Part shown: one piece after another, positions 12,164-47,100 of the stretch
Position numbering within the stretch: position 1 is the first letter of the stretch
Layout: every line of letters begins with the position of its first letter
Virus record (IMG/VR): IMGVR_UViG_3300020042_004377
Location: 1 to 50,521 of that record
Source: a virus
Taxonomy: Duplodnaviria > Caudoviricetes
Direction: 5' to 3' (one strand)
Length of the DNA stretch: 50,521 nucleotides
Notes under the pieces: model-generated
Database searches by the model: none
What the model was told of the DNA's origin: nothing
What the model saw: only the letters and a program-made list of their open reading frames with translations
Program-made: the position numbers and the translations under genes

Positions 12164-12799
12164 TTAAATGATTTTCCAACTACCTTGACTGTAATTGTCA
12201 GGCATTTTGATTGCGCCACCTTTGGCAAGTTTTAATGGGTTCAACATATTTATCACTTCTCCTGCACCGGGGCGGCGTCCGCCCAAACCTGTGCTGGAAC
12301 CCGTTCCTCTAATTGGCTTTTGTCCCAAACCACCTTCAAGTACTTCAGTAATTGCATTGCCAAAATGAACACCTTTACCTGTATCCCCTACAGGGCTTTG
12401 GCTTTTATAAATTTCAACTGGATGCAAGCCAACTTCTGGTTTTGTTGTAAACGGAGCTTTTGCAACCACAGAGCCAACTTTTTTTGGCCCATAGTCTTCC
12501 AGTAGTTTGATTTGTGCATTTCCCGTTGGTTTTCCATCTGGCCCTATTTCTGGAATAAGTTGTGTAGATACATCTGGATTTTGAAGCCAACCAGCCAAAG
12601 CTGCTGTAGATGGTTTGTCCATATATACCGTCTTACCTGACTTTGGTTGAACCCCAGTTGATGTATCTCTATGTTTTTCACCGCTTCTGTTCCTTATAGT
12701 TTGGCTGCCGGGCAAATGAGCATAAGTAGACCCACGCTCAGTGCGGTACATATACTCTACATCCGGTATATCTTTAAATGCTTCGTAGTCCATACTCAT
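12164..12799 (-). CDS. Hypothetical protein inserted between terL and portal, ending in an LAKGG motif
   Basis: 211-aa ORF with AAGGA RBS; visibly more AT-rich than the flanking genes. Confidence 0.7.
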   Translation of the reverse strand: MSMDYEAFKDIPDVEYMYRTERGSTYAHLPGSQTIRNRSGEKHRDTSTGVQPKSGKTVYMDKPSTAALAGWLQNPDVSTQLIPEIGPDGKPTGNAQIKLLEDYGPKKVGSVVAKAPFTTKPEVGLHPVEIYKSQSPVGDTGKGVHFGNAITEVLEGGLGQKPIRGTGSSTGLGGRRPGAGEVINMLNPLKLAKGGAIKMPDNYSQGSWKII

Positions 12800-15067: not shown

Positions 15068-15198
15068 GGGGGGTGTTTTAAAAACGGGGTAGGGGGGTAC
15101 CTACGAAACCTACGAAAGACCCCCTCCCCCCCCATAGCACAACATCTTATAGTGTGGTTGAGTTAGACGTGAGGAGCTACAGGGGGGTGTTTTAAAAA
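15068..15198. repeat. 17-bp direct repeat GGGGGGTGTTTTAAAAA (15068-84, 15182-98) among G/C homopolymer tracts
   Basis: Two identical copies read directly; also tandem ACCTACGAA and a C-run between them. Confidence 0.85.
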
Positions 15199-15405
15199 TG
15201 GGTAATGTAACGAGCAAATTTGAGTAGTAGAGGCCAAGATGGTACCAAGTTCAAAATCTGGGTGGTGGGGTCGTTTGGCTTTCATACTGTATGAAACATA
15301 AAACTGTCAGGCAATAGCTATCTCGTGCATTCTGTAGCTACTTGTGCCACAATAGAGCATCGGTTGAGAGAACATTCCGTTCTCGCCGATAACAAAGGAC
15401 TGATT

Positions 15406-15936
15406 GTGAACAACACATCAAAAACCCTCTCGCTCGACAATGTCGCCATCGCAACCCAAATCGGTGTTACTCTCGCCGAACTGAACCTTGTTGAAAACAA
15501 GGCCGAGGTTCTCAAACGTGAGATTAACGGCAACATCAAGGCCTTGCATCACAACAAGGTCAAGGTGGGCATCTATCGCAAAGATGGTACGGGTTGCGCC
15601 GTTGCAACGGGCTTCATTGACGGATGCGTTGCTGGTGGCATCAAGGCTAGCACGGCACAACGTGTCTACCTTGGCACCTTCAAGAGTGCCGTTGCATCGG
15701 GCAAAGAAGTTGCCGATTGGAATTCTTCACGTGAGAAGTCCAAAGGTGGCGCATCAAACAAGGCAACTAAAAAGGCTGAGTTTGCAGATAAGCTTGCCAA
15801 AGCTTATCGGGATGAAGAATTTGCCGGATTCATCGTTGACCTCGAAAAGGCATGGGATGACCAGACCATCAAAACCTTGATGGAAGGTGTCAAATCCTAC
15901 CTCGAAATGAACGGCATCAAGACCGACAAGAAATAA
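15406..15936 (+). CDS. Hypothetical protein, first gene of the rightward arm
   Basis: ORF 15325..15936; likely GTG start at 15406 after AAAGGA; TGn-CACAAT extended -10-like site at about 15345-53; has its own terminator. Confidence 0.8.
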   Translation: MNNTSKTLSLDNVAIATQIGVTLAELNLVENKAEVLKREINGNIKALHHNKVKVGIYRKDGTGCAVATGFIDGCVAGGIKASTAQRVYLGTFKSAVASGKEVADWNSSREKSKGGASNKATKKAEFADKLAKAYRDEEFAGFIVDLEKAWDDQTIKTLMEGVKSYLEMNGIKTDKK

Positions 15937-15959
15937 CTTTCATACCGTATGAAAGCTTT

Positions 15960-15987
15960 AAGCCCCGCTTCGGCGGGGCTTTTTTTT
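15960..15987 (+). terminator. Intrinsic terminator
   Basis: AAGCCCCGC-TTCG-GCGGGGCTT followed by a T run. Confidence 0.92.
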
Positions 15988-16157
15988 GCCCAAAAATTTT
16001 GAGACCTGTATCCGATACCTGTTTCACGCCTGCCATCCAGTCCTACGCTGGACGCTTTCGGTGTGCATACAGACCGAAAATTCAACCTATCAACATCTTG
16101 TGGCGTGTTGTAGTTTCATCCCAACTACTAGCTCAGGTCTAATTAAAGGGTGCGAAA

Positions 16158-16388
16158 ACTGTTCCCTCGCCGCTGGCCGTGCTAGATGTAGTGACATAGT
16201 GGGGTATGTAGTTTGTCTGGAGTAATGCGGTATAACATGGTGCTGTATTGTGCTAAGACCCTTGACAGATTACTACGCCATACATCATCTTACGCTACAC
16301 ACGCTACATACCCCACTATGTTATTCTAACTTTCATACTGTATGAAAGTTGCTTATACTTCTGAACACTGTTCCCTCGCCGCTGGCCG
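16158..16388. repeat. 22-bp direct repeat ACTGTTCCCTCGCCGCTGGCCG enclosing an 18-bp inverted repeat
   Basis: Direct repeat at 16158-79 and 16367-88; inverted repeat ACATAGTGGGGTATGTAG at 16194-211 and 16304-21. Confidence 0.9.
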
Positions 16389-16446
16389 CACCGACCTGCT
16401 TAATTTTTGTGCAGAATACGTAACGCTGTAATAAGCAAGAGCATTA

Positions 16447-16775
16447 TCTACTTTATTCTGCAATATTCTATGCACCGGAATAAAACAATCCCCTTTTAAA
16501 TTAAGCACTTGCGAAGAATTATTCCCCTATTATTCTTATATTCTTATAAATATATATATATACCAATCTTAAATTTCTACATATATTCAATCATACAAAA
16601 AACATGTTGGCTGTGTGTTGTGAAAATCTATATTTTCTCTCTCCTTTGCTTTCTCTGGCTCAAATCTCAAAAATCAAAGAATAAAGGAATAATATACCCT
16701 CCTCCCCTCCTAACACGTTGATATCATTGAACTTTCTTTTATTCCTACCCCTAGAATATTGCAGAATAAAGTAGA
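16447..16775. repeat. Nested inverted repeats around an AT-rich (TA)n core, candidate replication origin
   Basis: Perfect 24-bp inverted repeat at 16447-70 and 16752-75; inner GGAATAAAA/TTTTATTCC; many TATTC/GAATA units; TATATATATATA near 16551-62. Confidence 0.75.
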
Positions 16776-16837
16776 CATTGCACTTCCCAGCACTCTTTCA
16801 TACTGTATGAAACCCCTTCATACTGCCTTATTTTGAC

Positions 16838-16866
16838 TTGACAAGACCATGTAAAGCTGTTACAAT
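16838..16866 (+). promoter_or_regulatory. Strong sigma70-type promoter
   Basis: TTGACA-17 bp-TACAAT with TGn extended -10; flanked by palindromes at 16796 and 16910. Confidence 0.88.
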
Positions 16867-16949
16867 AGAGGCTCATTCGGAACAAATACGTTTCAATGAC
16901 AGGGGCAACTTTCATACCGTATGAAAGCTGGCATCGTCCAAGCCCCTAG

Positions 16950-16961
16950 GCTCTTTAACAA
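16950..16961 (+). promoter_or_regulatory. boxA antitermination element (rrn/nut type)
   Basis: GCTCTTTAACAA matches the proteobacterial rrn boxA core; about 80 nt downstream of the promoter; a short hairpin AGCC-CCTA-GGCT overlaps its 5' end. Confidence 0.7.
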
Positions 16962-16964
16962 CCT

Positions 16965-17700
16965 ATAAGACACGCATGACAACTTGTTGTCATGTAAATC
17001 AAACCGCCGCTCGGAACTAATGTAATACGAGAAGCACAAAGGCAGAAGCAAGCAAAGAAGAAGGGCCGGAACTGCAAGGGCGGGTTGGCTAAACGTAGGC
17101 AACCTACTAGCACTCACAAGTGAAGTGCATAGCCAGACAAATACAGCGTCATGAATCAGCAAGGGCAACCCTGCATGAACGACAACGTAATTTCTGTCTG
17201 TACAAACAACCCCAACCCAAGCTATCCAAGATACCCCACAACGATGTGTGAAACCTCCCTGTGCGAATAGGCGTCTGGTAGTCAGTCCAGTGCATACGTG
17301 GTGTAGTGAGTAGTGAAACTGATTGTTTCCGAAGAACGATAGCGTATGCAAACGTAAACCAATATAGATACTGCCTAAATGTGTTGGGGCTGGCTTTCAT
17401 ACCGTATGAATGCTGTGGGCGAAAGTCCTAAACCCCTAATGTGGAGTATGCGGTGGATGTAAAAAGAGTCAACAAGTCATCCACAGCCAACAACCACTAG
17501 AGACCCGAACCTGCGTAAGCAGGGATATGCGGCAATGACAAACACTATCGCAGTTAGTAAAGCAATAAAAGCGAAGCACGACCAAGTAACGACAAGTAAC
17601 TACGACGGTGCTGTGGTAACAACACAGCACAAGAGACTATAGCGTGTAGGGCATGGGTAACCATGTCCTATGCGGTGGCAGTCTCGCCATCGTTCAAAGG
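16965..17700 (+). ncRNA. Candidate large structured non-coding RNA (about 750 nt)
   Basis: No plus-strand ORF of 60 aa or more starts between 16722 and 17669; at least 8 stems, GNRA loops at 17417-28, 17510-23 and 17647-70, A-rich linkers; lies downstream of the promoter and boxA. Confidence 0.6.
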
Positions 17701-17711
17701 ATTCATACAGT

Positions 17712-17972
17712 ATGAAAGACTCAAATTCAATCCCAAACCTTTACATCGTGGACTACTGGAAGCCGTTCCCATCGTCTGAGTATGGCGGTGTGCAATGTGT
17801 TGTTGCACATAGTGATGCCGAGTGCGAACGCATCCTTGCAGATGACGTAGACGAGTTTCACCGTGGATACCATCCCGACTACCGTGAACGCATCGCCAAC
17901 TGCATCAAGAGAGCCAAGCGTTTCCCTGTGGATGCCGCAGATGTGGGCATCGTGTACGAATTCAGAACTTAA
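17712..17972 (+). CDS. Hypothetical early protein
   Basis: MKDSNSIPNLYIVDYWKPFPSSEYGG; the ATG lies within a palindrome copy. Confidence 0.7.
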   Translation: MKDSNSIPNLYIVDYWKPFPSSEYGGVQCVVAHSDAECERILADDVDEFHRGYHPDYRERIANCIKRAKRFPVDAADVGIVYEFRT

Positions 17973-17984
17973 AGGAGAGAGCAA

Positions 17985-18395
17985 ATGAAATACAACTCAT
18001 TGATGGAAGCACAGATGGGCGAATGGCCTGACAGCTTGGTGCTGACCGACCGACAGATGTGCGAAGCACTCGAGCGGGTTGTGCCCGACTGGATGACCAA
18101 CCACAAGATGAAAGACTGGCCCATGTATGACGCACGCCATGAATTTGGGGAGTGGTATGCGCCCATCTTTTATATGGATTGGAAACATCTACAGATTGAG
18201 CAGACACGCGCAAGGTGGGCGCGTAGTGCGTTCTATTACCGAAGCGGTGACCCTGCTGGGTTCTTCTATGCGTGCGGCAAGCAAGACGATGGGACATACC
18301 GCCATGTGGGGTTCCGCTACGGCACAGAGGACTGCGAGTACGCATCGGGGTTTGATGGCATGACTTACACACCAACCAAAGGAGAGAGCAAATGA
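17985..18395 (+). CDS. Hypothetical early protein
   Basis: 136 aa; RBS module AAAGGAGAGAGCAAATG. Confidence 0.75.
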   Translation: MKYNSLMEAQMGEWPDSLVLTDRQMCEALERVVPDWMTNHKMKDWPMYDARHEFGEWYAPIFYMDWKHLQIEQTRARWARSAFYYRSGDPAGFFYACGKQDDGTYRHVGFRYGTEDCEYASGFDGMTYTPTKGESK

Positions 18396-18586
18396 ACGTA
18401 TTTATCAACTTGAACAAAGTTTTCACGGAAGCCATGAATCACATGCAAGACCCCAACGATGTGCGTTGGTCTATTGGTATGGCGCTTCAAGAATTGTATG
18501 GAGACGAGTGGATGTACAAACTTCAACAGGACATGGTTTACGAATTTAACTTGCGGCACACACCGGAACAAAAGGAAAGCAAATGA
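18392..18586 (+). CDS. Hypothetical early protein
   Basis: 64 aa; same RBS module; ATGA coupling. Confidence 0.75.
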   Translation: MNVFINLNKVFTEAMNHMQDPNDVRWSIGMALQELYGDEWMYKLQQDMVYEFNLRHTPEQKESK

Positions 18587-18753
18587 ACTTATACGAATGC
18601 ACGAACACGTGTAATGGGGCTGTGCTGGTTGTTACTGCGAGTAGCAAGGCACAGGCAGAGAGACATGCAGGGTACATACTGGGTGTGGGTAGACGCACTT
18701 GGTTGTTGCGTGTGAGAGAAGTTTCATACAGTATGAAAGGAGAAAGCAAATGA
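18583..18753 (+). CDS. Small hypothetical early protein (56 aa, not in the ORF track)
   Basis: MNLYECTNTCNGAVLVVTASS...EVSYSMKGESK; ATGA-coupled at both ends. Confidence 0.65.
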   Translation: MNLYECTNTCNGAVLVVTASSKAQAERHAGYILGVGRRTWLLRVREVSYSMKGESK

Positions 18754-18977
18754 ACATGACTTGGAACCACAGGGTAATGAACTGCCCATCTGAAAACGGC
18801 GGCGATGACAACTTCACATTCCGTGAGGTGTACTACAAAGAGGACGGCACACCCTTTGCACATGGCGAAGCCTTCATGAGCGGTGACACCGTAGAGGAAC
18901 TGCACATGCTGGTGCGGCGGTTGGAGACTGCGTTGGGTGAGCCCGTGATGCACGAGAACGAATTTGAAAAGGAATGA
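18750..18977 (+). CDS. Hypothetical early protein
   Basis: MNMTWNHRVM..FTFREVYY..; RBS AAAGGAGAAAGC. Confidence 0.75.
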   Translation: MNMTWNHRVMNCPSENGGDDNFTFREVYYKEDGTPFAHGEAFMSGDTVEELHMLVRRLETALGEPVMHENEFEKE

Positions 18978-19150
18978 ACATGGACAACAAATACGAACGC
19001 AAACTGCTCGATAAACAAAAGGACACACGTGACAACACGTTGTGGATTGGTATGGTCACGAAGAAGCCGAAACAGGTCTCTGAGGTTTCATACCGTATGA
19101 AAGTGTCTGAGCGTGACAACTTGAAACTTGAAAGAGAGGGATGGAAATGA
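18974..19150 (+). CDS. Small hypothetical early protein (58 aa, not in the ORF track)
   Basis: MNMDNKYERKLLDKQKD...REGWK; ATGA-coupled at both ends. Confidence 0.6.
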   Translation: MNMDNKYERKLLDKQKDTRDNTLWIGMVTKKPKQVSEVSYRMKVSERDNLKLEREGWK

Positions 19151-19485
19151 AAAAACCGTATGTAGCAAACCGTGATGCACGGCGTTGTGTGCAAGAGTGC
19201 ATTCAATTCAGCGGCAGTAACGTGTGGGGCGAATGCGTTGATGCAGATACAGGCGAAGTTGCACTAAATTATGTGGTGTATAGCTTTCGTTACACGTGGC
19301 CCTTGTTCGTGTTCGATGAATTGGCGCAGGTCTGGTACGAGAACGTGGACAAGGCTTCCACGACCACAAGCAAACACCAGACGCAACTGCACCCGCTGTG
19401 CAACACCATACCGCTGGGTGTGGAGGACATGCGGATTGTGGCGCGTTTGGGTGGTGTAGGTCTTATTTCAAAGGAGATGGTATGA
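19147..19485 (+). CDS. Hypothetical early protein
   Basis: MKKPYVANRDAR..YVVYSF..PLFVFD..WYEN..S.TTSKH pattern. Confidence 0.75.
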   Translation: MKKPYVANRDARRCVQECIQFSGSNVWGECVDADTGEVALNYVVYSFRYTWPLFVFDELAQVWYENVDKASTTTSKHQTQLHPLCNTIPLGVEDMRIVARLGGVGLISKEMV

Positions 19486-19667
19486 AAGCGAAAGATTGGG
19501 TAATTCTGCGGTTGGTGTATGAAATCACCTCAAACGAAGCGTATGTGGCACGAACGAACAGCGATGTTATGAGGTCAATCCTGTACTTGATGCGTAAGTA
19601 TGGGGCGAAGCACATGTCCGAGTGCATGTTTAAGTTGAATGAAGAAAAGGAGAGCAACGATGAGTGA
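19482..19667 (+). CDS. Hypothetical early protein
   Basis: MKAKDWVILRL; AAGGAG RBS; ATGA coupling. Confidence 0.65.
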   Translation: MKAKDWVILRLVYEITSNEAYVARTNSDVMRSILYLMRKYGAKHMSECMFKLNEEKESNDE

Positions 19668-19881
19668 TTGCAGAATTTGTGGGGATGAGATTGACCCGCC
19701 CGAAAGGGCAAAACTCAAGCCGTACTGTCTCATGTGTGGCGAGGACATGGCACGAGCCGAGCGCCGTTCGTGGACTGTGGTGCAGGAATACGGCAAGGGT
19801 GGGTATATGTTTGTGACACAGCAGTCTGCCCACGTCACATTGAAACAAACAAACCAAAAGAACTTGAGGTGCGACATATGA
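19660..19881 (+). CDS. Small zinc-finger protein (CxxC..CxxC, TraR/DksA C4-like spacing)
   Basis: MSDCRICGDEIDPPERAKLKPYCLMCG. Confidence 0.65.
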   Translation: MSDCRICGDEIDPPERAKLKPYCLMCGEDMARAERRSWTVVQEYGKGGYMFVTQQSAHVTLKQTNQKNLRCDI

Positions 19882-20111
19882 AGCTAAGAGACATACGCAA
19901 GCGGGCGCAGACAAAGTACGTGCATGAGTCAGGGTTCCGGTTCATTCGTGACTACACAGGCAAGCGTTGCCGCACTTACGTGATGGGGTGTTCAACGTGC
20001 GATGGGTGGAGGTTCTTTGATGAGCATGGGCGGTTCGTGCACACCGATGTCGAACTGTGGAACTACATGCTGGACCTCAAGATAGAACGTGGACTTGACA
20101 CGTGTGTGTAA
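19878..20111 (+). CDS. Hypothetical Cys-containing protein
   Basis: MKLRDIRKR..GKRC..GCSTCDGW; ATGA coupling. Confidence 0.65.
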   Translation: MKLRDIRKRAQTKYVHESGFRFIRDYTGKRCRTYVMGCSTCDGWRFFDEHGRFVHTDVELWNYMLDLKIERGLDTCV

Positions 20112-20123
20112 AGCTGTTATAAT
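20095..20123 (+). promoter_or_regulatory. Consensus sigma70 promoter
   Basis: TTGACA-17 bp-TATAAT with TGn; shares TGTAAAGCTGTTA with the 16838 promoter; palindrome at 20168 downstream. Confidence 0.9.
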
Positions 20124-20193
20124 GTAGTTTGTTAGGTTGTTATTGTGTGTTAGTTAAACAAACGCGGTTTCATACCGTATGAAAGGAAGCAAG

Positions 20194-21066
20194 ATGAACG
20201 TATCTAAACTCTCTGGGTCTGCATTGATTGTCAACATGTCGTTGTCCGTATGGACAGGGCGCAAGCTGGATAAGCGTGTGTCGGAGGAGGTTGACCAGCA
20301 GAACTCTACCAAGACCCGCGCTGGCAATTACCACAAGAACCTGATGGCAGGTAGTGGCAAGCTGGAGGAAATCACCAAAGTGGCAAACGCCGTGCGTACA
20401 TGGCACTACACCGTGACACAGCCGTGGGGCGACAACGGCGACAGGGTGCTGAACATGGCATCGTTCGTGGACTACAAGTCACGGCTGACCGAGTACGAGC
20501 GTCAGTTTGCAACTGCTGTCAACAACTTTCTCAATGACTACGACACGATGGTCGCCGCAGCGGCGTTCCAGTTGGGCGACTTGTTCAGCAGGGATGACTA
20601 CCCACACCGAGACCAAATCGTTGGCAAGTTTGGGTTCCGGTATGCGTTCTCGCCCCTGCCTATGGCTGGCGACTTCCGTGTGGACATTGGCGAGGAAGGG
20701 TTGCGCGAGATGCAAGACCACTACGAGGGTGTGCTGAGTACCCGACTGGGTGAAGCGATGAAGGACGCTTGGGACAGGCTGTATGACGTGTTGACACGCA
20801 TGAGTGAGCGGTTGACCGATGACGTTGGCCCTGATGGCGAGCCCAAGCGCAAGATATTCCGCGACACATTGGTGGAGAACACATTGGAGGTGTGCAGTTT
20901 GTTACGGCACTTCAATATCACAGGGGATACACGTCTGGAAGCTATGCGTATGCAGTTGGAGGATGCGATGCGCGGCATTGATGCGGCTTCATTACGTGAG
21001 AGCGACATGTTGCGTGAGCAGACCAAGCGCAAGGTGGACGCTATGTTGGATAGGTTTTCTCTTTGA
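20194..21066 (+). CDS. DUF3150-like helical protein
   Basis: SLSVWTGRKLD, FSRDDYP..KFGF..PLP..DFR and LRHFNITGD; typical neighbour of AAA/vWA pairs. Confidence 0.6.
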   Translation: MNVSKLSGSALIVNMSLSVWTGRKLDKRVSEEVDQQNSTKTRAGNYHKNLMAGSGKLEEITKVANAVRTWHYTVTQPWGDNGDRVLNMASFVDYKSRLTEYERQFATAVNNFLNDYDTMVAAAAFQLGDLFSRDDYPHRDQIVGKFGFRYAFSPLPMAGDFRVDIGEEGLREMQDHYEGVLSTRLGEAMKDAWDRLYDVLTRMSERLTDDVGPDGEPKRKIFRDTLVENTLEVCSLLRHFNITGDTRLEAMRMQLEDAMRGIDAASLRESDMLREQTKRKVDAMLDRFSL

Positions 21067-21168
21067 GGAAACAGGTCTCGCGGCTTTCATACCGTATGAA
21101 AGTTGCGTTGTGTAAGTGGATGGGGTACAAACCGTATCCCGAGTTTTTCAAACCGAAAGGAAATCATC

Positions 21169-22248
21169 ATGTCTATGTATAAATCTCTCTCCCTACAACA
21201 AACCGCTGACCTCATCGCGGCGATTGGCGACAAGCAAACCGTGCTGGCATCTGGCGAGATGGGCATTGGCAAATCATCAATCCTCAAGATGTTGAAGGCA
21301 ATGCCTAAATTCAAAGACCACTTGTTCTGCTACGTGGACATTACGACCAAGGACGTTGGCGACTTCATGGTTCCCAAGATTCGCACCATCGATGGCGTTG
21401 AGGTGTGCTCATTCATTCCGAACGAGGAGTTTGGTCTGCACTTCAAAGGCAAGAAGGTTGTGATGATGCTGGACGAGTTGGGCAAGGCCAAAGGCGGCGT
21501 GATGAATGCGTGTCTGCGTCTAATGCAAGAGCGTTCGTTGGGTATGTATGACTTGGACGGCATCGTGTTTGCCACAACGAACTTAGGCATAGAGGGTATC
21601 GGTGACAACGTGCCACCCCATGCACGTAATCGTGTGACTCAGGTTCGTGTTCGTAAGCCCAATGCACAAGAGTTGATGGAGTATGCAATCAACAACAACT
21701 GGAACCCAATCGTTATCGCAACTATCAACGAGTTTCCCGAGATGTTGGCATCCTTTGAGGACTACGAGAAACCCGAGCAGAACATGTACATCAATGACCC
21801 ACGTGATGTACGTATGGCTGTGGTTACCCCACGTTCTTTGGACAAGTCTGGTTACATCATTGACCAGACGATGGCGTTGGGCGATGACATTATGTGTCAT
21901 GCGTTGAAGGGCACTATTGGCGAGAAGGCAATGCACAACATATTGACGATGGTGAAGTTGGATACACAATTAACCAATTGGGATGACCTCATCAAGTCTC
22001 CCACGACTGCGACTGTGCCCACGTCAGCGGCGGCGGCATGTATGTTGGTTGCCAAGGCAGTACAGCGCATTGAGAAGGTGAGCATAGATGCGTGGATGGA
22101 CTTCCTCCCACGTATCAGCAAGGAAGCACAGGGTTTGTTTGCACGTAGCGTTATGAGCGACAAGTGCCCCAAGCGTACTGTGGCGGCGACCAACCCCAAG
22201 TTTGCCAAGTGGGCGGCTGACAACAACTATTTGTTTGCACGTAAGTAA
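21169..22248 (+). CDS. AAA+ ATPase (MoxR/CbbQ-like)
   Basis: Walker A GEMGIGKS, Walker B MMLDE, sensor ATTN, TPRS. Confidence 0.85.
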   Translation: MSMYKSLSLQQTADLIAAIGDKQTVLASGEMGIGKSSILKMLKAMPKFKDHLFCYVDITTKDVGDFMVPKIRTIDGVEVCSFIPNEEFGLHFKGKKVVMMLDELGKAKGGVMNACLRLMQERSLGMYDLDGIVFATTNLGIEGIGDNVPPHARNRVTQVRVRKPNAQELMEYAINNNWNPIVIATINEFPEMLASFEDYEKPEQNMYINDPRDVRMAVVTPRSLDKSGYIIDQTMALGDDIMCHALKGTIGEKAMHNILTMVKLDTQLTNWDDLIKSPTTATVPTSAAAACMLVAKAVQRIEKVSIDAWMDFLPRISKEAQGLFARSVMSDKCPKRTVAATNPKFAKWAADNNYLFARK

Positions 22249-22257
22249 GGAGGATAT

Positions 22258-22386
22258 ATGACAACACCAGCAGAACTGTATGACTTGTTAGACAAGGCAG
22301 GTATTGAGTATGAAATCGTGGAGATATTCGAGGGTGTTCGCATCCTCAGTATCGAAGTAAATGAACCAACCGAAGAAGGAGAGTAA
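22258..22386 (+). CDS. Small acidic protein (42 aa, not in the ORF track)
   Basis: AAGGAGG RBS; MTTPAELYDLLDKAGIEYEIVEIFEGVRILSIEVNEPTEEGE. Confidence 0.65.
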   Translation: MTTPAELYDLLDKAGIEYEIVEIFEGVRILSIEVNEPTEEGE

Positions 22387-22388
22387 TC

Positions 22389-23603
22389 ATGTTTGTAACA
22401 ACAACACAATCGTTGCCTGCGTTGAAGCGCATTGAGCGTGCTCACGTTGAATTGATGGCACACAAAGATACTATGGAGTATGCAGGCATCATCATGGTGG
22501 GCAAGTACACGGTGGTGGACAACATCCCAACCGCATGTACCAACGGCATCGACTGCATGTATGGCAAGAAGTTTGTAGAAGAGTTGTCCGACTCTGACCT
22601 GCGTGGTCTCATCATGCACGAGAACTTGCACAAAACATTCCAGCATACGTTCTTGTGGAAACATCTGTACGAGGAGAACGCACGATGCGCCAACATGGCG
22701 TGTGACTACGTAATCAACATCCTCATCAAAGATATTGACAAGGCATCGAGCGGGTTTGTCACTCTGCCCAAGCAAGGGTTGTATGACGAGCGTTTCCGTG
22801 GCATGGACTCGCAAGAGGTGTTCAACATCTTACTGGATGAGAGCGAGGATGGTGATGGCGGTGATGGCGGTGATGGCGGTGATGGCGGTGATGGCGGTGA
22901 TGGCGGTGATGGTGGTGATGGGTTCGACTCTCACGACTGGGACACATCTGACCTCACACAAGAGGAGATTGAGGAACACATGAAGGAGGTCAATCAAGCC
23001 ATCCGTCAGGGTCAGTTGTTGGCTGGCAAGATGGGTGGCAATGTGTCCCGCGACTTGGGTGCGTTGCTTGATTCAAAGGTTGATTGGCGTGAGCAGTTGC
23101 GTGACTTTGTGAACAGTCTGGCCGATGGCAAGGATGTATCCACATGGCAACGTGTTAATCGGCGTTGGTTACAGCATGACATGTACATGCCCTCCACATT
23201 GTCCGAGAGCATGGGGCGTATCGTGGTTGCCATCGACACATCTGGTTCATGCTTTGATGCGTTAGAGCCGTTCTTATCTGAGATGCAAGCCATATGTGAC
23301 AACGTACAGCCAGAACTTGTGGACTTGTTGTACTGGGATACCGAGGTGGCACGGCATGAGGTGTATGGGCGTGATGACCTGCACAAACTTGTGAAGTCTA
23401 CGAAACCCGCTGGCGGCGGTGGCACTGACCCCGCATGTATCCCCAAGTACATCGAAGCCAAAGGGTTGAAGCCGGATTGTGTCGTAGTGCTCACCGATGG
23501 ATATGTTGGTGGGTGGGGTACATGGCGGCATCCGGTGTTGTGGTGTATCGCTGGTGGGTACAAGCCCCGCCCCTCCACAGGCGTGGCAATCTATATCGAT
23601 TGA
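22389..23603 (+). CDS. DUF2201-type putative metallopeptidase plus vWA domain protein
   Basis: TACTNG, HENLH (HExxH), NMACDYVIN, MIDAS DTSGS, GGGGT and VLTDG. Confidence 0.85.
   Translation: MFVTTTQSLPALKRIERAHVELMAHKDTMEYAGIIMVGKYTVVDNIPTACTNGIDCMYGKKFVEELSDSDLRGLIMHENLHKTFQHTFLWKHLYEENARCANMACDYVINILIKDIDKASSGFVTLPKQGLYDERFRGMDSQEVFNILLDESEDGDGGDGGDGGDGGDGGDGGDGGDGFDSHDWDTSDLTQEEIEEHMKEVNQAIRQGQLLAGKMGGNVSRDLGALLDSKVDWREQLRDFVNSLADGKDVSTWQRVNRRWLQHDMYMPSTLSESMGRIVVAIDTSGSCFDALEPFLSEMQAICDNVQPELVDLLYWDTEVARHEVYGRDDLHKLVKSTKPAGGGGTDPACIPKYIEAKGLKPDCVVVLTDGYVGGWGTWRHPVLWCIAGGYKPRPSTGVAIYID
22851..22922. repeat. 9-bp in-frame tandem repeat (GGTGATGGC)x6 plus 2 variants
   Basis: Encodes a (GDG)n linker. 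Confidence 0.95.
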
Positions 23604-23644
23604 GAAACAGGTCTCGCAGTAACTAACAAACGAAAGGAAAAATC

Positions 23645-24601
23645 ATGGCATCAATAAGAGAATTTTCTAGGAAGTATTGGTACGGCTCTTATATTGGCAT
23701 AGACAACTACGACATAGCAAAGGAGAACTACGAAAAGACGTTACCAATCCAAGGTAAGCGATTGAAGCATGGCATTGATGTGCGTCCCTTGACCGTTCGG
23801 CGGCGTGTGTGGGAAACGTGGCACAAGGATGGGGATGCCTACGGCATGGCGTTCGTTCAATCCTATTGCCAAACCACACGTGACTCAAAAACACAAAAGG
23901 TTATTAAAGAAGAGTACGTACACAACGTGCATCCGTTGCTGATGTTTCAACCCGATGGGGCAATAGAGTTTAATCCTTCATGGATGACCTACTACCCCAC
24001 ATGGGATGTGCTTGGTGCGTTGTTGCCCAAGGGCATAACTTACGTGCGGTACGGTAGCAAGAGTTACTTCAAGCTGGATATGCCAGATGGTATGGAGCCT
24101 ATGCACATGTTTAGCCCAGGTACAAAGATGACTTTCATACCGTATGAACATGAAGGCAAACGTTACTTCCGTGTGGACTGCCCCATATCAGAGACCAAGA
24201 TACTGATAGATAGGGACAAAGCAAAGAAGGTACGCGCAGAACTAAAAGCGTTCTTGGACTACTGCGAGTACATGGTAGACCTAGCACCCGCACCAACCAA
24301 ACACGACTGGAAAGCCGAAGCAAATGCAGAGGGTTGGTTGGAGACTATTGATTGGTTGGTGCGTAACGAAGGCGAGGAAATTGGAAGTAAATGGTTTCCT
24401 GCAATAGAAGCGTTTGTAGTGACATATGCAAGGTATGTGTACGACTACAAAACCCAAACAAGCGCGGCCATTCCCGTAGATGCTGGTGGCTTACGTGACA
24501 GATTGAAGGGTCACAAACTGTATGGGTACACCAGACCATACAGGGTTGAGTACGTGCCAATTGGTAAACCATTCTTTAAAAACGGGAGGACGATGGAATG
24601 A
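23645..24601 (+). CDS. Hypothetical protein
   Basis: 318-aa ORF with GAAAGGAAA RBS; contains the palindrome copy at 24133. Confidence 0.8.
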   Translation: MASIREFSRKYWYGSYIGIDNYDIAKENYEKTLPIQGKRLKHGIDVRPLTVRRRVWETWHKDGDAYGMAFVQSYCQTTRDSKTQKVIKEEYVHNVHPLLMFQPDGAIEFNPSWMTYYPTWDVLGALLPKGITYVRYGSKSYFKLDMPDGMEPMHMFSPGTKMTFIPYEHEGKRYFRVDCPISETKILIDRDKAKKVRAELKAFLDYCEYMVDLAPAPTKHDWKAEANAEGWLETIDWLVRNEGEEIGSKWFPAIEAFVVTYARYVYDYKTQTSAAIPVDAGGLRDRLKGHKLYGYTRPYRVEYVPIGKPFFKNGRTME

Positions 24602-24687
24602 TGACGTTATATGAGAAGGTAGAGAGAGTGGTGTTTTTGGTGGCACTCATTGTGGTGCTGTTGGATGTTTTTATTTGGAGGACATGA
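24598..24687 (+). CDS. Small membrane peptide (29 aa, not in the ORF track)
   Basis: MMTLYEKVERVVFLVALIVVLLDVFIWRT; GGAGG RBS; ATGA-coupled at both ends. Confidence 0.6.
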   Translation: MMTLYEKVERVVFLVALIVVLLDVFIWRT

Positions 24688-25580
24688 ACATGATTTCAAA
24701 AGATGATTACGTTGGCGACTATGGCTACAACAGATTTGTAGACGTGAGTAGTGGTTCACTCAGCGCAGGGTGGAAACATTGGATTGAGGACATACCCGTG
24801 TCCTTACACCTGCTCAAGTTTTACAACGAGGTCAAGCACAAGCGTAAAGATATTGTTGTGCGTGTTGACAACCGCCCTACGAATGTTATTTGTGAGGGTG
24901 GAGAACCCGCTTACATATTCCCCGAACTGGGGTTGGCGTTCAGCGATGCGCCTGAGTTGAAGTGCGGTGGCATAGGCATGGAGAGACACATAGTGGGGGA
25001 TTGGGTGTACTACGTGCGGTCTGCACTCATAAGAAACGAGAAGTACAAACCAAGCAACAAGGATGGGTACAACGTCCTCAAGACCAAGAACTTTGCCAAG
25101 GCAATCAAGAACGTCTTGCAGTACGTCAAACCCGTTGAGATGGCATGGCTGATGGAGGACAAGGAAGCTGATTTGAGCAGAGCAGTTATGAATATTCGGG
25201 CACCTGCCCAAGAGGTGTATCACAAAGCCCTTGGCATGGGGCGTAACGCTATACGTCAAGAGATTGATAACATGATTCGCATGGGGTATGCGCCTATGAC
25301 CCAAGATTTTAAGGAAGCCTTTGCGTTGATGGAATCCCAAGGTAGCGACCTCAAGCGTGTAGCCAACTACAAACCCCGCACATGCTTTGTGTGGGCGAAG
25401 CCTGACAAGGTGGAGTTTAAGTACAGCGACGAGGACCAGATACACGTTGTGTACAACGTACAAGATGTTCCTGAGAACATAAAAGACAAGATCGCGGTCC
25501 TGCAAATTGGAGGTGATGGGGATGCCGTTATGGACGTTGGCACAAAGATTTCCAACACAATGTACTGGGTGTTCGTATGA
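24684..25580 (+). CDS. Hypothetical protein
   Basis: ORF of about 298 aa in a coupled operon. Confidence 0.8.
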   Translation: MNMISKDDYVGDYGYNRFVDVSSGSLSAGWKHWIEDIPVSLHLLKFYNEVKHKRKDIVVRVDNRPTNVICEGGEPAYIFPELGLAFSDAPELKCGGIGMERHIVGDWVYYVRSALIRNEKYKPSNKDGYNVLKTKNFAKAIKNVLQYVKPVEMAWLMEDKEADLSRAVMNIRAPAQEVYHKALGMGRNAIRQEIDNMIRMGYAPMTQDFKEAFALMESQGSDLKRVANYKPRTCFVWAKPDKVEFKYSDEDQIHVVYNVQDVPENIKDKIAVLQIGGDGDAVMDVGTKISNTMYWVFV

Positions 25581-28888: not shown

Positions 28889-29130
28889 GCAAATGGGATA
28901 ACCACAAGGACAGGGGCAACACCACCTTCAACAGGTGGGCAGAAGCCAACAGCGTTGCGAAGATGACACGCGAGATCAACACCTGGATGCACCAGCAGGG
29001 GCAACTGTGTTGGGCTTGCCAAAAAACATCACGCCCCCAACAAGGATGCGTACTCACCATAAAGCCAGGGTTTAAGAAGTATGTGTGTAAAGAATGTGTT
29101 GACGCACGCAAACCAAAGGAAATTATATGA
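28885..29130 (+). CDS. Small zinc-finger protein
   Basis: CWAC..CKEC. Confidence 0.65.
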   Translation: MSKWDNHKDRGNTTFNRWAEANSVAKMTREINTWMHQQGQLCWACQKTSRPQQGCVLTIKPGFKKYVCKECVDARKPKEII

Positions 29131-41067: not shown

Positions 41068-41145
41068 TAGCAATTGATCTCCTCTCTCCTTTCGGTTGCT
41101 ATCTCCCGATCATTTCCCCCGGCCTAAAAAACCGGGGGTTTTTTT
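41068..41145 (+). ncRNA. Candidate anti-Shine-Dalgarno small RNA (about 78 nt)
   Basis: TGn-TAGAGT at 41054-62; 10-bp stem 41068-77/41092-101 with 14-nt loop TCTCCTCTCTCCTT; ends in a terminator. Confidence 0.55.
41116..41145 (+). terminator. Intrinsic terminator at the convergence of the two arms
   Basis: CCCCCGG-loop-CCGGGGG followed by T7. Confidence 0.85.
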
Positions 41146-44100
41146 CAGTCTTCCAATTCTTCAATTGAACGCTCAATCAAGGGTCGCAGTTTCTTGTTTA
41201 CTTGCACCCCGTGGTACATCTCATTTGAGATACGGTCACGAGCCTTCACCGACTTGGTGATTGTGTTCTCAGATATCTTCAACTCAGGGTATTTGTCCCC
41301 CAACTCAAACAACTTGTCCCTGAGTTCATCAGCACGCTCATAGTCCCCCTCACGCTGGGCAACGTAGTATTTCTTGAGCAGTGACTTCTCTTGCTTGGTG
41401 ATAACGTCACCCATCTTCTTGGCATACGCATTGATCTCGTACTGGGCCAACAAGTCAGCAGGTGCAAAGCCCAACACCTGCATTGCGGCGTTGTAACCAT
41501 TAACCTGCCCAACCTCGTCACCGCGTAAAGTGCGTGCATCCTCCAACATATACCGACCGCCCTTGAGGACGTTGCGTAGAGCAATAGGCAACATGGCCTC
41601 CACTCCACGCTCAAACTGACCATCAGCGATAAGTTCTTTGCCTCGGTAGACGCTGTTTACAACAGCCCAAGGTGCGCCCAAAAGGTTCTCTAGTATCTGG
41701 CTCAATGCGCTGGCATCTGCCTTGTCGCCCTTGTTCTCGCGGTAAATCAAATCAGTCCAGCCCACACGATCGGCAACGCCAAGATTTGTGAAATAGTTTA
41801 GTGGGCCTTTGAACGCAAGTTCCCCAAGATACTTACGCATGACAGTATCAAAGTCATCTTCGTCGTCATCGTTGAGTGCGTTGTACGCCATCTCTGCAAC
41901 CCAGTACAAGGGCAGACCTTTTGCTCCAGCAAAGAGTGCCGACATGCCGTAGACACCTGCAAGTTGGCGGCGAGCCACTTTGGCTTCCGCGATCTGGTCT
42001 GCGTCTGCATTGGGAGGTAATCCCAACAGCTTGCTACGGCGCATGGTGTCAAACAGCATGTAGTACATGGTGAAGGCAAACCGCTTGAACACGGTAAGAA
42101 TTTTGCCCAGGTCGCTTTGACCGATGCTGGGGCCAGATTCAGTATGACCTGCACCGTGGGCAAACTCCACCAGACGGACAGCCTTCTCAATGGCTTTGGT
42201 TTGAGCTTCTTCGCCCTTGATACCCTTTTTAGCCAGCCGTGCCATCTCCAAATCGTATGCCGCTATCGCCGTCACTTCACGGTTAAAACGCTCGGCTTGG
42301 TGGAACATGGCTGTGGACACACGGGCAGTCTTCTGGGCGATGCCCTGCAAACTCTCAGGGTTAAGCGCCTCATGCGCCATAGACTCCACTAGCAGACCCA
42401 GTTCATCCAAACGGGTGAACAGACCTTTGTATTGTTTGTGCTGACCCTGCCCAATTAAGTTTTCCACAGACAAGCCAACACGCACAGGGCCAGTCTGGGT
42501 GATCTCTACACCGTTGATATCCACAATCTTGCGGGTGAAACCGCTACTTTTGAAGATGTTGGCGGCTTTAAGTAAGGCGCGACCTGAGTCAATGAACCCG
42601 TATTCCCCGCCCAACTGAGGTAACACCACCATAGGAGTTTGCAGGGTGTTGACCACAGCCGACGAGACGTTACCCGCCAAGTTGAAATAGAACGAACCAG
42701 TGCTGGCGTATCGTGCGATATCGGAAAACTGCGGGTTTATAGCAAACTTAAACCGGGCTTCCATTTCCTGCACCAATTCTTTTGCCCGGACGCTTTCGTC
42801 CCCGCGCTTTAGGTTGGCTTGCTTACGCATGGAGTCCAGCAACTGCTGAAGTTCTTCGCTGTACCGCATACGCGACAACTGCCGTGCTGTACGATCAGTT
42901 ACACGGGAGAACGCTTTAGATACATCTTGTTCATAGCCAGGGGTTCCCTTACGAGTTTGGAACGACTTGAGCAGGCTGGTCTCAGGCAACGCACTTACGA
43001 TTAACTGCAAGAACTTGTCCACCGCCGCATCATCAGCCCCACCATCCCGCATGATTTTGACGATCTGAGCCGCCACCGTTCCACGTGGAACCGTTTTGGA
43101 GGTCATGTTCTCGGTGCGGGAGTATTCTTCAATCCCCGTATGCCCATCAGCAACGACCTGGGTTTGCGCGAGGCGGCGCTCGGCTTGGGTGTTGAACAGG
43201 CGCTGCACTGTCTGTTTAGTGTTCTTGTCCGTGTACTGCAACCAGTATTCACCCTCACGATACAGCGGTGAGTAATGATCGATGCCCATCTTGGTGATTT
43301 GGTCAATGATCTTGTTGTACGCAGACAGAGCTTTTTCTTTGTCCTTGTTGCCGTTCTCATCAACAAAGGTCTCATCCAAATTCTTGCGGATGGATTCTTT
43401 TATTTCCGTGAACAGAACTTTGAATGAGGCAAAGTGATCTTTATACAACTGCTGTTCAGTCGGTGTCAGCTTGGCATAACGTGCCCGTAAGTCTTTGTAG
43501 GCTTTGAGGTTTTCTGCACTGCCAGCGTATTTTTTGCTGGCTTCCCCTGGTTCCAAAGATGGGTTCACGTCTGCCAAAGTGGAGTCGTTGACCAAATCAG
43601 CCCAGTTGCCATACCTGTCAGAACGGGAGAACTCTTGCAGACGCTCTTTCAACGGTTGCAGTTTCTTGGACAGGTTGCCGTAATACGCCGCCATCTCGTT
43701 TACGGTATCGGCAAACTTAATGGAATCTTGACCTACGATCTTGGCCCCAATTTGACCCAGTGCTGACAGGTTCAAAAACCTTTGAGCGAATGTACGCAAA
43801 GACAATCCGGATTTCTCAATTGCGCCCAGCACTTGAGCGGCGGTCTCAGGGGTGACCAGCTTTTGCTTGTGGATGATATTGTCCGTGGCATTGAAAACGC
43901 GCTGAGTCAGGTTTGGATGTTTTATCGACTGTGCGTACAATGTATCACCATCGCGCTGACCGGGGGGCACGCTCACAATTTCGTTGAGTAACGTGTCCAC
44001 CATATCCAAGGCATTGCCCTGCTTGGGCGGGAACCCAAACATCCTACGTACAACTTGTACTATCTTGTCCCAGAGTGAAGTGTTTGGCACATCGGCGTAC

Positions 44101-47100
44101 TTCTCTTTCAACTGGGTACGGAACGCATCATTACTCCACACTTCTGCTACAAACTCTTGCAGGCTCTTTGCGCCATACGCCCCATCGACATCGGCTTGAA
44201 GTTGCTTGAATATCTGCTCCAACTGCTTGGTCACGGGGTGGGACGGATTGGCAATCATATGGGACAGCCCAGCGTGAGCCGCTTCGTGCAAGAACTCGTA
44301 GTCGGTGGCGTCTTTCCGCAAGTAGATTGTGTTGGTCTTGGGGTCGTACATCGACTCAGGCGCACCGTACACCAGCTTCACATCACCCAGCAGCCGGGAC
44401 AATACATCGGCAATCTGTGCAACACGCTCGGACGAGGCGGTGCCACCAAAGGCACGCATAGCTCCGACGAAATTGCCACGCTCCAACATTCCAATCACAG
44501 CCGGGTGGGCTGTGGTGTACAACTGAGCAACTTCTGGTGACGCAAGCAACGTATTCAGATCGTTGTCAGCGATGTAGTCCATATCTGCATCAGCACCCTC
44601 GTACTGCTCCAAGGCGGCGCGTGCATACTCCCGCGCTTTCTTGCGGTTCTTGTTGGGTTTGATGCCAAATTCTTTTACATCCTCTGCCATGTCTTTCAGA
44701 GCAGCCTTCTCGGACGCTTCGGCCTTGATGCCTTCTTCTTTGATTTGGACTTTGGTAGCCTTTTTTACTTTGGTTTGGCGATCTTGACGTTCTTTTGAAA
44801 CCCGAGCCCTGAGTTCTTCTTTTTCGTATTGAGCAATATTTTTGTCTAAAAACGCCACGCTCTCAGGAGACAGATTGGCGCGTGCCCATTCAGCAGCATT
44901 TTTGGCGTGCTTGCCCCCCTGCCCTTGAAACATGGAGGCTTCGCCTTCCCAAGCAAAGAATGGTTCCGGTCCCGTGGGAAAACCTTCGGGGGCTTTGTAG
45001 TCCCCCTCAAACGCTTTCATTTTGGAGTTACGGTACGCCGTAGGTTGCCGCACTAAATCATCAGCAATCCATTTCAGCGCATCACGAACAGGTATCCTTC
45101 CAAAATAGGCAGTGGCGTCCTTCTCTTGCGAAGACATTTCTCCACGCTTGCGCTTGCCCAGCTTGGTGTTAACAGCCGCCTCATCAGGCGTGAACTTGGC
45201 CTTCTCTATATCCTCAAGAGACGCACCAAGAGTCGGTTCTTCCACCTTTTTGGTAGTGGGAGCCGCAGTAGTTTTGCCAGTAGCTGCCTTTCGTCCCTTA
45301 GAAGGTACGGTAGGGGGTACAGAAGCAACATCAGCAATAGTAGAAGTATCTTCAATTGGGGCTCCCGTTACTGGAGGGGCTGAAGGTTCTTCTCCAACAG
45401 CAGGCTGTGCAACATCCTGTCCAGTAGGAACCACTCCATCTCGTTGAGGTGGTTCAAGTCCCTCGGTGGGGGCTCCTGTAACGGGCTGTGTAGCCACGCC
45501 AACGCCTGCTCCACTTGCTGTGGTGTCAACTCCTGCAACATTAGGCACTCCTTTTAGTTCGGCGCGGATAGCCTCCACCTGCTGGGGGTCAAAGGTAGAG
45601 ATAAGATCGTTGTACGCCGTTTCGTTAATCCTGCCTTTGAAACTGGGGTTCTCTACCGTCTGAATCAACTGACGTTGACCCTCGGGTGTGGAAATATCTA
45701 TGTTATTTAAAAACTGCCCTACCTTGGAACGCTTAACTATGCCAAGCTGTTCTGCAACGTTTGAAACAACAGGAGGGGCAGGAGGTTGTGCCCCCGGTAA
45801 AAACAAACCTTCTTCATTAGGTGTAGCAGTAGTGAATCCACTCAATGCGCTTTTCTCTGCATCAAGTTTCAACTGCTGTTCTTTTAATTTAGCGATTTCA
45901 GCATCAAGTTCCGCATATGCTTTAGAACCGGGACGAGCGGCATCCATCCGTGCTTGCAGAATTGCCAATTCATCGGGCATGTATTTAAACGCAGCCTCAA
46001 GATCAGCCTGTCGTTTAGCCCGTGATGCAGCAAGTTGATCTTCGTACTCGGCGGCTTTTTCTGGGGTCAGTGAACCAGCCGCACGCTCTTGGTCGTACTG
46101 TGCTTGCAATGCAACTTCAGCTTCTTTTGTGTTGCTGTAATCCGTGTATGCAGTACGGTAATTTGATATGCCTGTGGGTACGCCAAACATCCCACCGCCC
46201 ACGGCTCCTTTAACAAACGCTTCCTTGTACCGTTGGACGTTCTCTGGAGACAGCAATTCTTTTGCGCTTCCAGCAACTTGCTCTGCATACGCTCCAATAA
46301 ACTCTTGTGTGCCTTCGGTCAAACCCTCTACAGCCGCCGCTTTGGGCACTTCTTTGAGCAGGTTCTTCCACACGCTGGGTTTTGCACCCGAATTCTTTGC
46401 CATCTCTGCAATGATCTTGGCCTTGCCGTAACCACCCAAAGTGCTCAATGTTTGGGCAGGGAGCACTGAGTCCAACACAGCACTCAACCCACCGTATAAA
46501 GCAGAAATGCTGGGCTCCAACTGACCCGTTTCACGATAGATGTTTTCAAAAATTTCAGGAGCGGTTTGGGCGTATGAACCCAAGAACACACCAGCCTGCA
46601 TACCTCGTTTAGCGCCTTGTGCAGCGGCAGCTTTTACGATGGGAGCGGCAAGAGCCTCACGTCCAGCAACACCAGCAGTAGCGGCTCTCAATGCAGCGCC
46701 ACCCACCACCCGCGACCCAACAGCGCCCAAACCCACGCCAGGAATAATTGCCGTTGCCGCAGTGGGCACAAGTTCGCCGCCCGTCTCAGCCACAAACTCC
46801 AAGGCGTCCCCCGGACCTTTAACCTCTTTGTACGAACGAAACCGTGTGGGGTATTTCTCTTCCAGTTGTTCACGACTGGTTTGCGCCTCTGCCAACTGAC
46901 GTTCTGCGTATTCATTTGCGCCTACCGCAGTGCCAATCATGGCGGGCAACGTGTCTCCAGCCGCAATACCCAATTCACCCAGCCCCCGCATTGCCCCGCG
47001 CTTAAAGATTGTGCCAAGGCTGGCCTCTGGTTTTGGCGCAGGAAAATCATATTTTTCCGCCAGTCGATACACCAACGAATTGAATTGCGCGGGTGACAAA

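Follow-up and report, generated by a model that had tools for sequence, protein, structure and literature searches.

Palindromic Site Array in the Early Arm

The window is the whole stretch of DNA that was analyzed, 50,521 nucleotides of viral record IMGVR_UViG_3300020042_004377, which is ~80% complete. Its early arm carries 12 palindromic sites within positions 15280-24149, and there are none elsewhere in the window. The exact form TTTCATACnGTATGAAA occurs at nine of the 12 sites, the other three (17395, 17701, and 24133) having a single end-base mismatch, and the inner 15 bp, TTCATACnGTATGAA, are identical in 12/12. As this 15-bp palindrome is perfect save for its centre base (C in seven sites, T in three, and A in two), the site is symmetric, not asymmetric. 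A sequence-only reading of this DNA had described twelve copies with a variable centre base and had proposed a motif scan of the whole genome. All 12 of its coordinates are correct, a palindrome scan of the window at ≤3 mismatches revealed no further match, and the contexts that it gave for the copies (promoters, stop, start or ribosome-binding site, and reading within CDSs) were correct where re-checked. Shuffled controls (n = 100) contained a mean of 0.24 and a maximum of 2 matches, and 0/100 reached 12. The features are as follows (no strand is assigned to the sites).

15280..15296, no strand: site 1, upstream of g1 (exact match)
15345..15353, + strand: possible extended -10 element (TGnCACAAT) for g1, found by eye, weak, and missed by the promoter scan
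15406..15936, + strand: g1, first gene of the early arm, 176 aa, likely site-binding regulator (from sequence and model)
15664..15666, + strand: Val87 codon of g1 (Val with CATAC sites, Thr with CGTAC sites)
15938..15954, no strand: site 2, directly after the g1 stop (exact match)
15960..15989, + strand: intrinsic-terminator-like hairpin and T run 3′ of g1 (terminator scan)
16331..16347, no strand: site 3, intergenic (exact match)
16796..16812, no strand: site 4, centre ~-69 from the first strong promoter (motif match and promoter register)
16838..16866, + strand: sigma-70-like promoter, 11/12 consensus (promoter scan)
16910..16926, no strand: site 5, centre ~+45 from promoter 16838-16866 (motif match and promoter register)
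17395..17411, no strand: site 6, one end mismatch (motif match)
17701..17717, no strand: site 7, one end mismatch, including the ATG at 17712 (start of ORF 17712-17972)
18722..18738, no strand: site 8, in the terminal part of CDS 18583-18753, beside a ribosome-binding site
19086..19102, no strand: site 9, within CDS 18974-19150, read as VSYRMK (protein Met to Thr on motif change)
20095..20123, + strand: sigma-70-like promoter, 12/12 consensus (promoter scan)
20168..20184, no strand: site 10, centre ~+46 from promoter 20095-20123 (motif match and promoter register)
20194..23603, + strand: gene module under the array, DUF3150-like, AAA ATPase, and DUF2201 (metallopeptidase plus vWA); the DUF3150 match is below cut-off
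21085..21101, no strand: site 11, between the DUF3150-like gene and the ATPase gene (exact match)
24133..24149, no strand: site 12, one end mismatch, within CDS 23645-24601, read as FIPYE

Arrays in Related Phages

In related phages, arrays occupy the same positions in other spellings (TTCGTAC, TTCCCAC, TTCATAT, and CTAACA half-sites). In 8/8 near-complete, non-mosaic close relatives, all exact sites fall within the interval bounded by the small terminase and DNA polymerase genes, and the late arm of the eight near-complete close relatives contains none. Phages that are 82-93% alike bear different cores, and in some pairs the cores differ within identical flanks (G001 vs G050). Mixed arrays in L814, L816, and G050 may be assembly chimeras. 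Neither an array nor a g1 homologue was detected in the relatives G021 and G029, no array was seen in HTVC027P or DSL-LC04 (49 kb read), and MinM2, a distant phage whose GenBank record names a host, has a genome-wide array. That selection acts on the DNA, as the earlier reading had proposed, is borne out by G-type phages, in which the in-frame site turns a protein Met into Thr. RNA runs gave contigs only, with flat depth, and are uninformative on expression. A literature search with thin coverage of subscription journals retrieved no description of this system, and one by title found no paper on MinM2.

The earlier claim that site density falls with distance from the arm boundary stood across genomes, as the spacing gradient is positive in 24/25, but was weak in the window alone (rho 0.53, p 0.096); the gradient may partly follow gene size. 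It would suit a g1 that mainly organizes or shields the first-entering DNA by bridging, looping, or a role in DNA entry, with secondary effects on transcription, as would the recurrence of a site pair 114-119 bp apart close to the boundary and the ending of many terminase contigs near G-run tracts there. However, sequencing artefacts can break contigs at G runs, g1 is located in the early arm rather than with the virion genes, and a tight promoter register of +34 to +46 (see below) is superfluous for shielding, making this explanation quite unlikely.

The divergence of motif classes between close phages resembles that of immunity groups (compare PMC6550527), and a site stands directly before the DNA polymerase gene in G007, G032, and G046 and, with one mismatch, in G010. 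Together with the predicted transcription unit of g1, which is its own and ends in a terminator, these features would fit an immunity-type repressor that maintains dormancy, in a non-integrated or pseudolysogenic form, with the whole rightward arm shut. Against this stand the site-free late arms and a search for tyrosine recombinase, resolvase, and ParA (PF00589, PF00239, and PF13614), which found none in 21 records (15 with a completeness of at least 90%), while its controls were positive in 14, 12, and 14 of 14. Such a repressor is considered unlikely.

Predicted Structure and Family of g1

The AlphaFold model of g1 (pLDDT 84, pTM 0.53) presents a predicted N-terminal coiled-coil dimer, helices 65-76 and 81-98, a basic linker, and a C-terminal helical domain. 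Modeled as a homodimer, g1 scores 0.80 against 0.01 for the best control, the score mark being reached by 20/30 known pairs and 1/23 single chains. The dimer runs agree in at least 93% of contacts with pLDDT of at least 80, and residues 85-87 are not named among the predicted interface residues. The model thus predicts that g1 is a homodimer, and the dimeric binder postulated from the sequence is probable.

The g1 family comprises 114 clusters at 50% identity and has no named match, and no known DNA-binding fold was matched to g1 by sequence. None of 81 g1 sequences matched an HTH family above cut-off; the model does have the helix pair 65-76/81-98. Fold searches with the g1 model (VIA, best Z 4.6; Foldseek, no E <0.001) and with a domain model of pLDDT 59 (best Z 5.4, to an unrelated chain) indicate neither a known nor a new fold and exclude no family. 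The DNA-binding part may resemble the core-binding domain of tyrosine recombinases; no such chain was among the matches listed for the fold searches, the domain model having the low pLDDT given above. In an atlas search, the nearest neighbours of g1 were unnamed viral protein clusters (0.94), with recognition below the reliable mark, and DUF3102 at 0.83 is a lead only. An extended profile of g1 links it to the Z family (82%, E 1e-5), which in turn matches the N family (97%), and direct profile links of g1 to N and to the first genes of X, Y, K, and MinM2 were not significant. No cultured phage with a g1 match was found.

Co-variation of g1 Residue 87 with the Sites

Residue 87 of g1 is Val with CATAC and Thr with CGTAC in 60/60 sequences with no errors, vs eight errors for the next best of 173 columns, and a rule set in advance correctly predicted the motif for 55/55 new g1 variants. 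Of the candidate binders in the sequence-only reading, 15406..15936 is the one whose sequence varies along with the site. With column 87 left out of the tree, the motif changes seven times, five of them forced by supported branches; the independent-pairs test gave 5/5 (p = 0.0625). The change from Val to Thr requires two base changes and there is no intermediate among the 60 codons, so recombination of blocks, and not separate mutation, may account for several of the switches. Each of the motif classes C and T has its own residues at g1 91 and 104-109, and a short-helix lineage goes with the same CATAC site without Val87. Among 50 gene families, motif-linked residual identity is highest for g1 and the site-holding CDS (0.41 and 0.42), and in a genome-wide control, 8/9193 columns separate three A from six to seven G genomes. 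When extra loci were added, g1-87 held in 23/23, g1-71 in 18/23, the site-encoded Met/Thr in 4/4, and a Zn-finger column in 4/12; the 8022 column has only two G rows there. At the sequence level, the co-variation points to g1 as the binder rather than to an effect of binding.

The HTH genes at 29127, 35923, and 37690, proposed as alternative binders, do not track the motif. The first was matched only in the near-identical record G005, and the putative recognition helix of the other two is unchanged in most A- and G-type phages; 37690 has Ile for Val in three C-type or mosaic genomes, yet A and G are not separated. The DUF3150-like protein was likewise rejected as the binder: each of its two diagnostic columns held in just 3/5 extra loci, and near-identical C-terminal tails occur with A, C, and T motifs.

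A host factor had also been suggested, and the sites might bind a host protein or work as RNA or single-strand hairpins. The 17-mer can form a 6-7 bp stem with a 3-nt loop, two sites extend to longer stems, and C is the favoured centre base on the arm strand (92/167 A-type sites). However, flank G-T wobble pairs are rarer than A-C mismatches on the transcribed strand, and the innermost pair is kept complementary, though a 3-nt loop needs no such pair; the eight Rfam matches are all far under gathering scores. Across 596 Gb of prokaryote DNA, ~130 stretches contain the exact motif vs 139 expected by chance, with single sites and no array among the matches listed (80), and the differing cores of phages 82-93% alike also speak against a host protein. 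As a phage residue (g1 87) predicts the motif, both forms of this explanation are extremely unlikely.

Promoter Register and Proposed Mechanism

In the close clade, a site follows the predicted start by 34-46 bp at 31/33 consensus sigma-70 promoters, and no site overlaps the region from -35 to +20 of the 33. Neither of the two consensus promoters in the window is overlapped by a site, and that at 16838-16866 is flanked on both sides by the sites at 16796 and 16910. Two promoter-like sites (10 of 12) in the replication block lack an operator, which is a weak observation. Sites beyond the polymerase footprint need not give strong repression. The position at +34 to +46 suggests roadblock-type repression of the early promoters, as far as sequence can indicate. 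Silencing of the early region, as put forward in the sequence-only reading, would agree with where the sites lie.

Site 4 lies ~-69 from its promoter, which is a class-I activator position, and there are sites within genes and beside a terminator, so that g1 might be an activator or anti-terminator recruited by the sites to raise early transcription. This is highly unlikely, considering that the promoters already match 11-12 of 12 consensus positions and that most sites lie downstream of the start.

The palindromes are probably operators for g1, a predicted homodimer that would read the half-sites with helix 81-98 and repress the early arm. In this scheme, g1 would be made first from its own short unit and then accumulate. 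It would bind 34-46 bp downstream of each strong host-type promoter, as well as at gene junctions and on either side of its own gene, where the bound protein would act as a roadblock to RNA polymerase. The early host-takeover block would thereby be shut off in a timed manner, g1 would limit its own expression, and a second phage that arrives later and belongs to the same motif class would also be silenced. A broader view, possible rather than probable, is that widespread integrase-less podo-like phages use lock-and-key operators and a new dimeric DNA-binding family for early-gene timing and silencing of same-class kin, switching protein and sites by a one-residue code and recombination, and so form immunity groups without lysogeny. 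On this lock-and-key reading, the silencing of same-motif kin would lead to rapid joint switching of protein and sites.

Significance

With this analysis, a phage protein family that has no name gains a likely function. Residue 87 of g1 would represent a rare natural one-residue recognition switch, testable with one protein and two oligonucleotides, and MinM2, with its named host, is a possible test system. If repression holds, it would show early-gene timing or restriction in a phage that carries consensus promoters of the host type and has no integrase, and would open to test the question of why some dozen sites change in step with their binder among close relatives. Small, mutually specific repressor-operator pairs could serve as orthogonal genetic switches.

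Comparison with Known Systems

parS arrays are repeated 16-17 bp palindromes clustered in one region, as are the present sites. The present system differs in the absence of ParA (21 records) and of any ParB-family match among 71 window proteins, and in its fixed promoter register. The operators of lambda CI/Cro are 17-bp two-fold symmetric sites for a dimeric HTH binder whose specificity is set by a few helix residues; they are few, clustered, and overlap promoters. The symmetric 17-bp sites are shared, as are the dimeric binder and the specificity from few residues (both predicted here), whereas the present sites extend across 9 kb, downstream of starts (31/33 at +34 to +46) and g1 has no HTH family match. 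The Streptomyces phage phiC31 contains many copies of a 17-bp inverted repeat (CIRs) near early promoters and terminators that are bound by its repressor, and it is temperate, with a serine integrase and a much larger repressor. The likeness lies in the many 17-bp inverted repeats and the difference in that integrase and repressor. A literature search found no relevant paper on the CIRs.

Cluster A phages (L5 gp71, Bxb1, and TipsytheTRex) have 20-30 asymmetric 13-mers per genome, oriented with transcription, and their repressor is monomeric, has HTH and Stoperator domains, and belongs to temperate phages that possess an integrase or parABS (PMC6550527, PMC9283540). In both systems, a single site is repeated many times, mostly outside promoters, the phage encodes a protein of ~180 aa, site and protein diverge together among related phages, and a block of elongation is proposed, here from sequence. 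In contrast to Cluster A, the present sites are palindromes restricted to the early arm (the window and 8/8 near-complete close relatives; genome-wide in MinM2 alone), g1 is predicted to be a dimer and does not match the Cluster A repressor in sequence, and no integrase or ParA was found, with 15 records at least 90% complete. Judged by analogy, the array is a system that would work like the Cluster A stoperators and is not a member of that group.

Palindrome array and its placement

A pattern scan of the window allowing up to three mismatches recovered all twelve of the 17-bp palindromes that the sequence-only reading had placed between 15280 and 24149; nine are exact, three carry one mismatch at an end, and the inner 15 bp are identical in 12/12 sites. 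Shuffled windows gave a mean of 0.24 matches, and none gave 12. The virion arm of the window is oriented leftward and the early and replication arm rightward, and the array begins at the boundary between them. The nearest named phages by terminase are DSL-LC04, HTVC027P/023P and MinM2 (47-55%). The claimed confinement to the early arm was found again in all eight close relatives that are near-complete and non-mosaic, where every exact site has the small terminase gene on one side and the DNA polymerase gene on the other. Therefore, the confinement is not caused by the missing 20% of the window record, whose estimated completeness is 80%.

In a search of prokaryote genomes (596 Gb), about 130 stretches contained the exact 17-mer, versus 139 expected by chance under uniform composition, and those among the 80 of 120 listed are single sites; this argues against a motif of the host. 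Viral contigs contain it in 76 stretches, and 16 contigs (hand count) carry at least two copies; two of these contigs are near-identical to the window.

Changes of spelling among relatives

De novo palindrome searches revealed that relatives have arrays at the same position. The half-site is TTCATAC (A-type) in the window and TTCGTAC (G-type), TTCCCAC (C-type) or TTCATAT (T-type) in close relatives; distant relatives have CTAACA with 1-3 nt spacers, GCGACA, GTTTAG, CTGACA or CTTCAG, and MinM2 has 21 copies of GTTCAGnCTGAAC genome-wide. The early arms of the related records G001 and G050, the latter a mosaic that may be a chimera, are 82-93% alike; the flanks of the sites match and the cores differ. 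The in-frame site of the coding sequence at 18974-19150 changes Met to Thr in G-type phages, as also in 4/4 extra loci. Neither an array nor a homologue of g1, the first early-arm gene (15406-15936, + strand, 176 aa), was detected in the records G021 and G029. Hybrid and mixed arrays were also observed (loci L814:2036 and L816, G001 at ~8842 in arm orientation, and G050), comprising a site whose halves are of different type (A and G), a single A-type site in an array of G-type sites, and three types in one record; these may be transitional states or chimeras. Read on the arm strand, A-type sites of the close clade favour C as the centre base (92/167) and G-type sites do so less (50/150), counts that come from related, non-independent sites.

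Co-variation of g1 with the motif

The ORFs of 35 records were clustered, and 50 families were tested in 20 close genomes for identity tied to motif class above the core trend; the top ranks went to g1 and to the coding sequence that contains a site. Among the binders proposed from the sequence alone, g1 is the one that co-varies with the motif; the HTH genes at 29127, 35923 and 37690 do not track it. Five g1 columns (87, 91, 104, 106 and 109) track the motif in 29 distinct sequences (31 minus two fragments). A residue-to-motif rule was fixed prior to the retrieval of 48 viral and 62 metagenome loci, which, with three unparseable and duplicates merged, yielded 23 training and 55 new segments. 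Blind prediction from g1 was correct in 55/55 new segments (16 Val with CATAC, 30 Thr with CGTAC and 9 short-helix), several being judged from one site, with L769 a tie, L816 mixed and no new T-type case.

Column 87, Val in the window, makes no error in 60 Val/Thr sequences, and the runner-up of 173 columns makes 8, so that whole-gene linkage does not explain it. On a tree built without column 87 there are seven motif switches, and residue 87 and motif agree in 5/5 independent pairs (p = 0.0625). The 60 codons include no Ala or Ile intermediate, and L816 has the look of a recombinant, so independent mutation does not account for every change. In a control that covered the whole genome, 8 of 9193 columns were diagnostic, of which only g1-87 and the site-encoded column survived the extra loci with adequate data. 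The operator array is real and specific to its lineage, and g1 is well supported as its very probable binder.

Predicted structure and relatives of g1

The g1 protein has 99 near relatives and 114 clusters at 50% identity, and a family search against Pfam, PHROG and PDB gave no convincing match. Its AlphaFold model (pLDDT 84, pTM 0.53) predicts helices at 4-49 (long), 65-76, 81-98 and 107-112 (short), followed by a basic linker modelled with low confidence and, at the C-terminus, three more helices; the putative DNA-binding part may resemble a recombinase core-binding domain. The two-copy model scored 0.80, with 0.01 for the best control, on a scale whose mark is attained by 20/30 known pairs and 1/23 single chains. 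The predicted contact is an antiparallel N-terminal coiled coil, in whose interface residue 87 is not named, and the model supports a g1 dimer. Profiles link g1 to the first gene of the arm in CTAACA and CTGACA phages; for the equivalent genes in MinM2 and three further groups, shallow alignments gave no link.

In near strains, 15750-15934, encoding the g1 C-terminal domain, has a diverged replacement of equal length (runs X1 and X5), and motif classes are intermixed in the tree of this domain. The first-arm gene is present in two copies per genome in the related records and loci G028, G075, L465, L500, L365, G058 and W01.

Promoters and proposed mechanism

In the close clade, 33 promoters match the consensus at 11 or all of its 12 bases. 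A site centred between +34 and +46, counted from the assumed start, accompanies 31 of them; another has its site at +67, and the last, which lies outside the arm, lacks one. The stretch from -35 to +20 is free of sites. Other sites are on either side of g1, after stops or on ribosome-binding sites. Two weaker promoter-like sites in the replication block have no operator, though the scan that gave them yielded fewer matches than shuffles. An RNA hairpin role of the sites is disfavoured.

The role of g1 and the array is probably repression. g1 would be made first, from a short unit closed by a terminator, and on accumulating would halt polymerase just past initiation and at gene junctions, which would shut the early block and make g1 self-limited. 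Searches of 21 records, 15 of them near-complete, for a tyrosine recombinase, a resolvase or ParA were all negative, and a timer in lytic growth is for this reason preferred over prophage maintenance, although the system may hold a dormant state without integration.

Neighbouring features

Other features of the window
12164-12799: 211-aa ORF between terminase and portal
15068-15200: G-run cluster with repeats of GGGGGGTGTTTTAAAAA, in the interval separating the start of the small terminase gene from g1
~16001, - strand: near copy of GAAACAGGTCTC, found by eye
16158 and 16367: ~22-bp direct repeat, ACTGTTCCCTCGCCGCTGGCCG, within the long intergenic region that follows g1
~19071, 21070 and 23605, + strand: second short motif, GAAACAGGTCTC, found by eye
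24675-25580: 301-aa protein outside the known families, with conserved counterparts in 29 of the compared records
41145-47153: 2002-aa protein with LPD39 and DarB-like regions, adjoining a DNA ejection protein

Relatives have G/C runs at the position equivalent to 15068-15200, and many terminase contigs end nearby; this region may signal packaging or be a point where assemblies break. Copies of GAAACAGGTCTC lie just upstream of the ninth and eleventh palindromes and after the DUF2201 gene. The ORF at 12164-12799 had no match at the equivalent place in the relatives compared except the near-identical record G060, is skipped by near strains from three runs, and looks like a recent insertion. Nearly every relative with an array, MinM2 among them, carries the module of DUF3150-like, AAA ATPase and DUF2201 (vWA) genes (20194-23603), and so do the array-less G021 and G029. 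MinM2, Pag-Yong1 and Pra-JY27 (OQ594354, OL906435 and PP438419), each 65,014 bp with equal match scores and differing stated hosts, are possibly one phage of uncertain host.

Comparison with known systems

A description of the g1/array system was not found in the accessible literature, older subscription papers lying outside it. Lambda operators, phiC31 CIRs and parS are further systems for comparison. The stoperators of Cluster A number 20-30; they are asymmetric and oriented, a monomer binds them, and the sites and repressor diverge together (PMC6550527, PMC9283540). Asymmetry, genome-wide spread and an integrase or ParA define the Cluster A system and set it apart from the window system, but in its proposed operation the window system is like that of the Cluster A stoperators.
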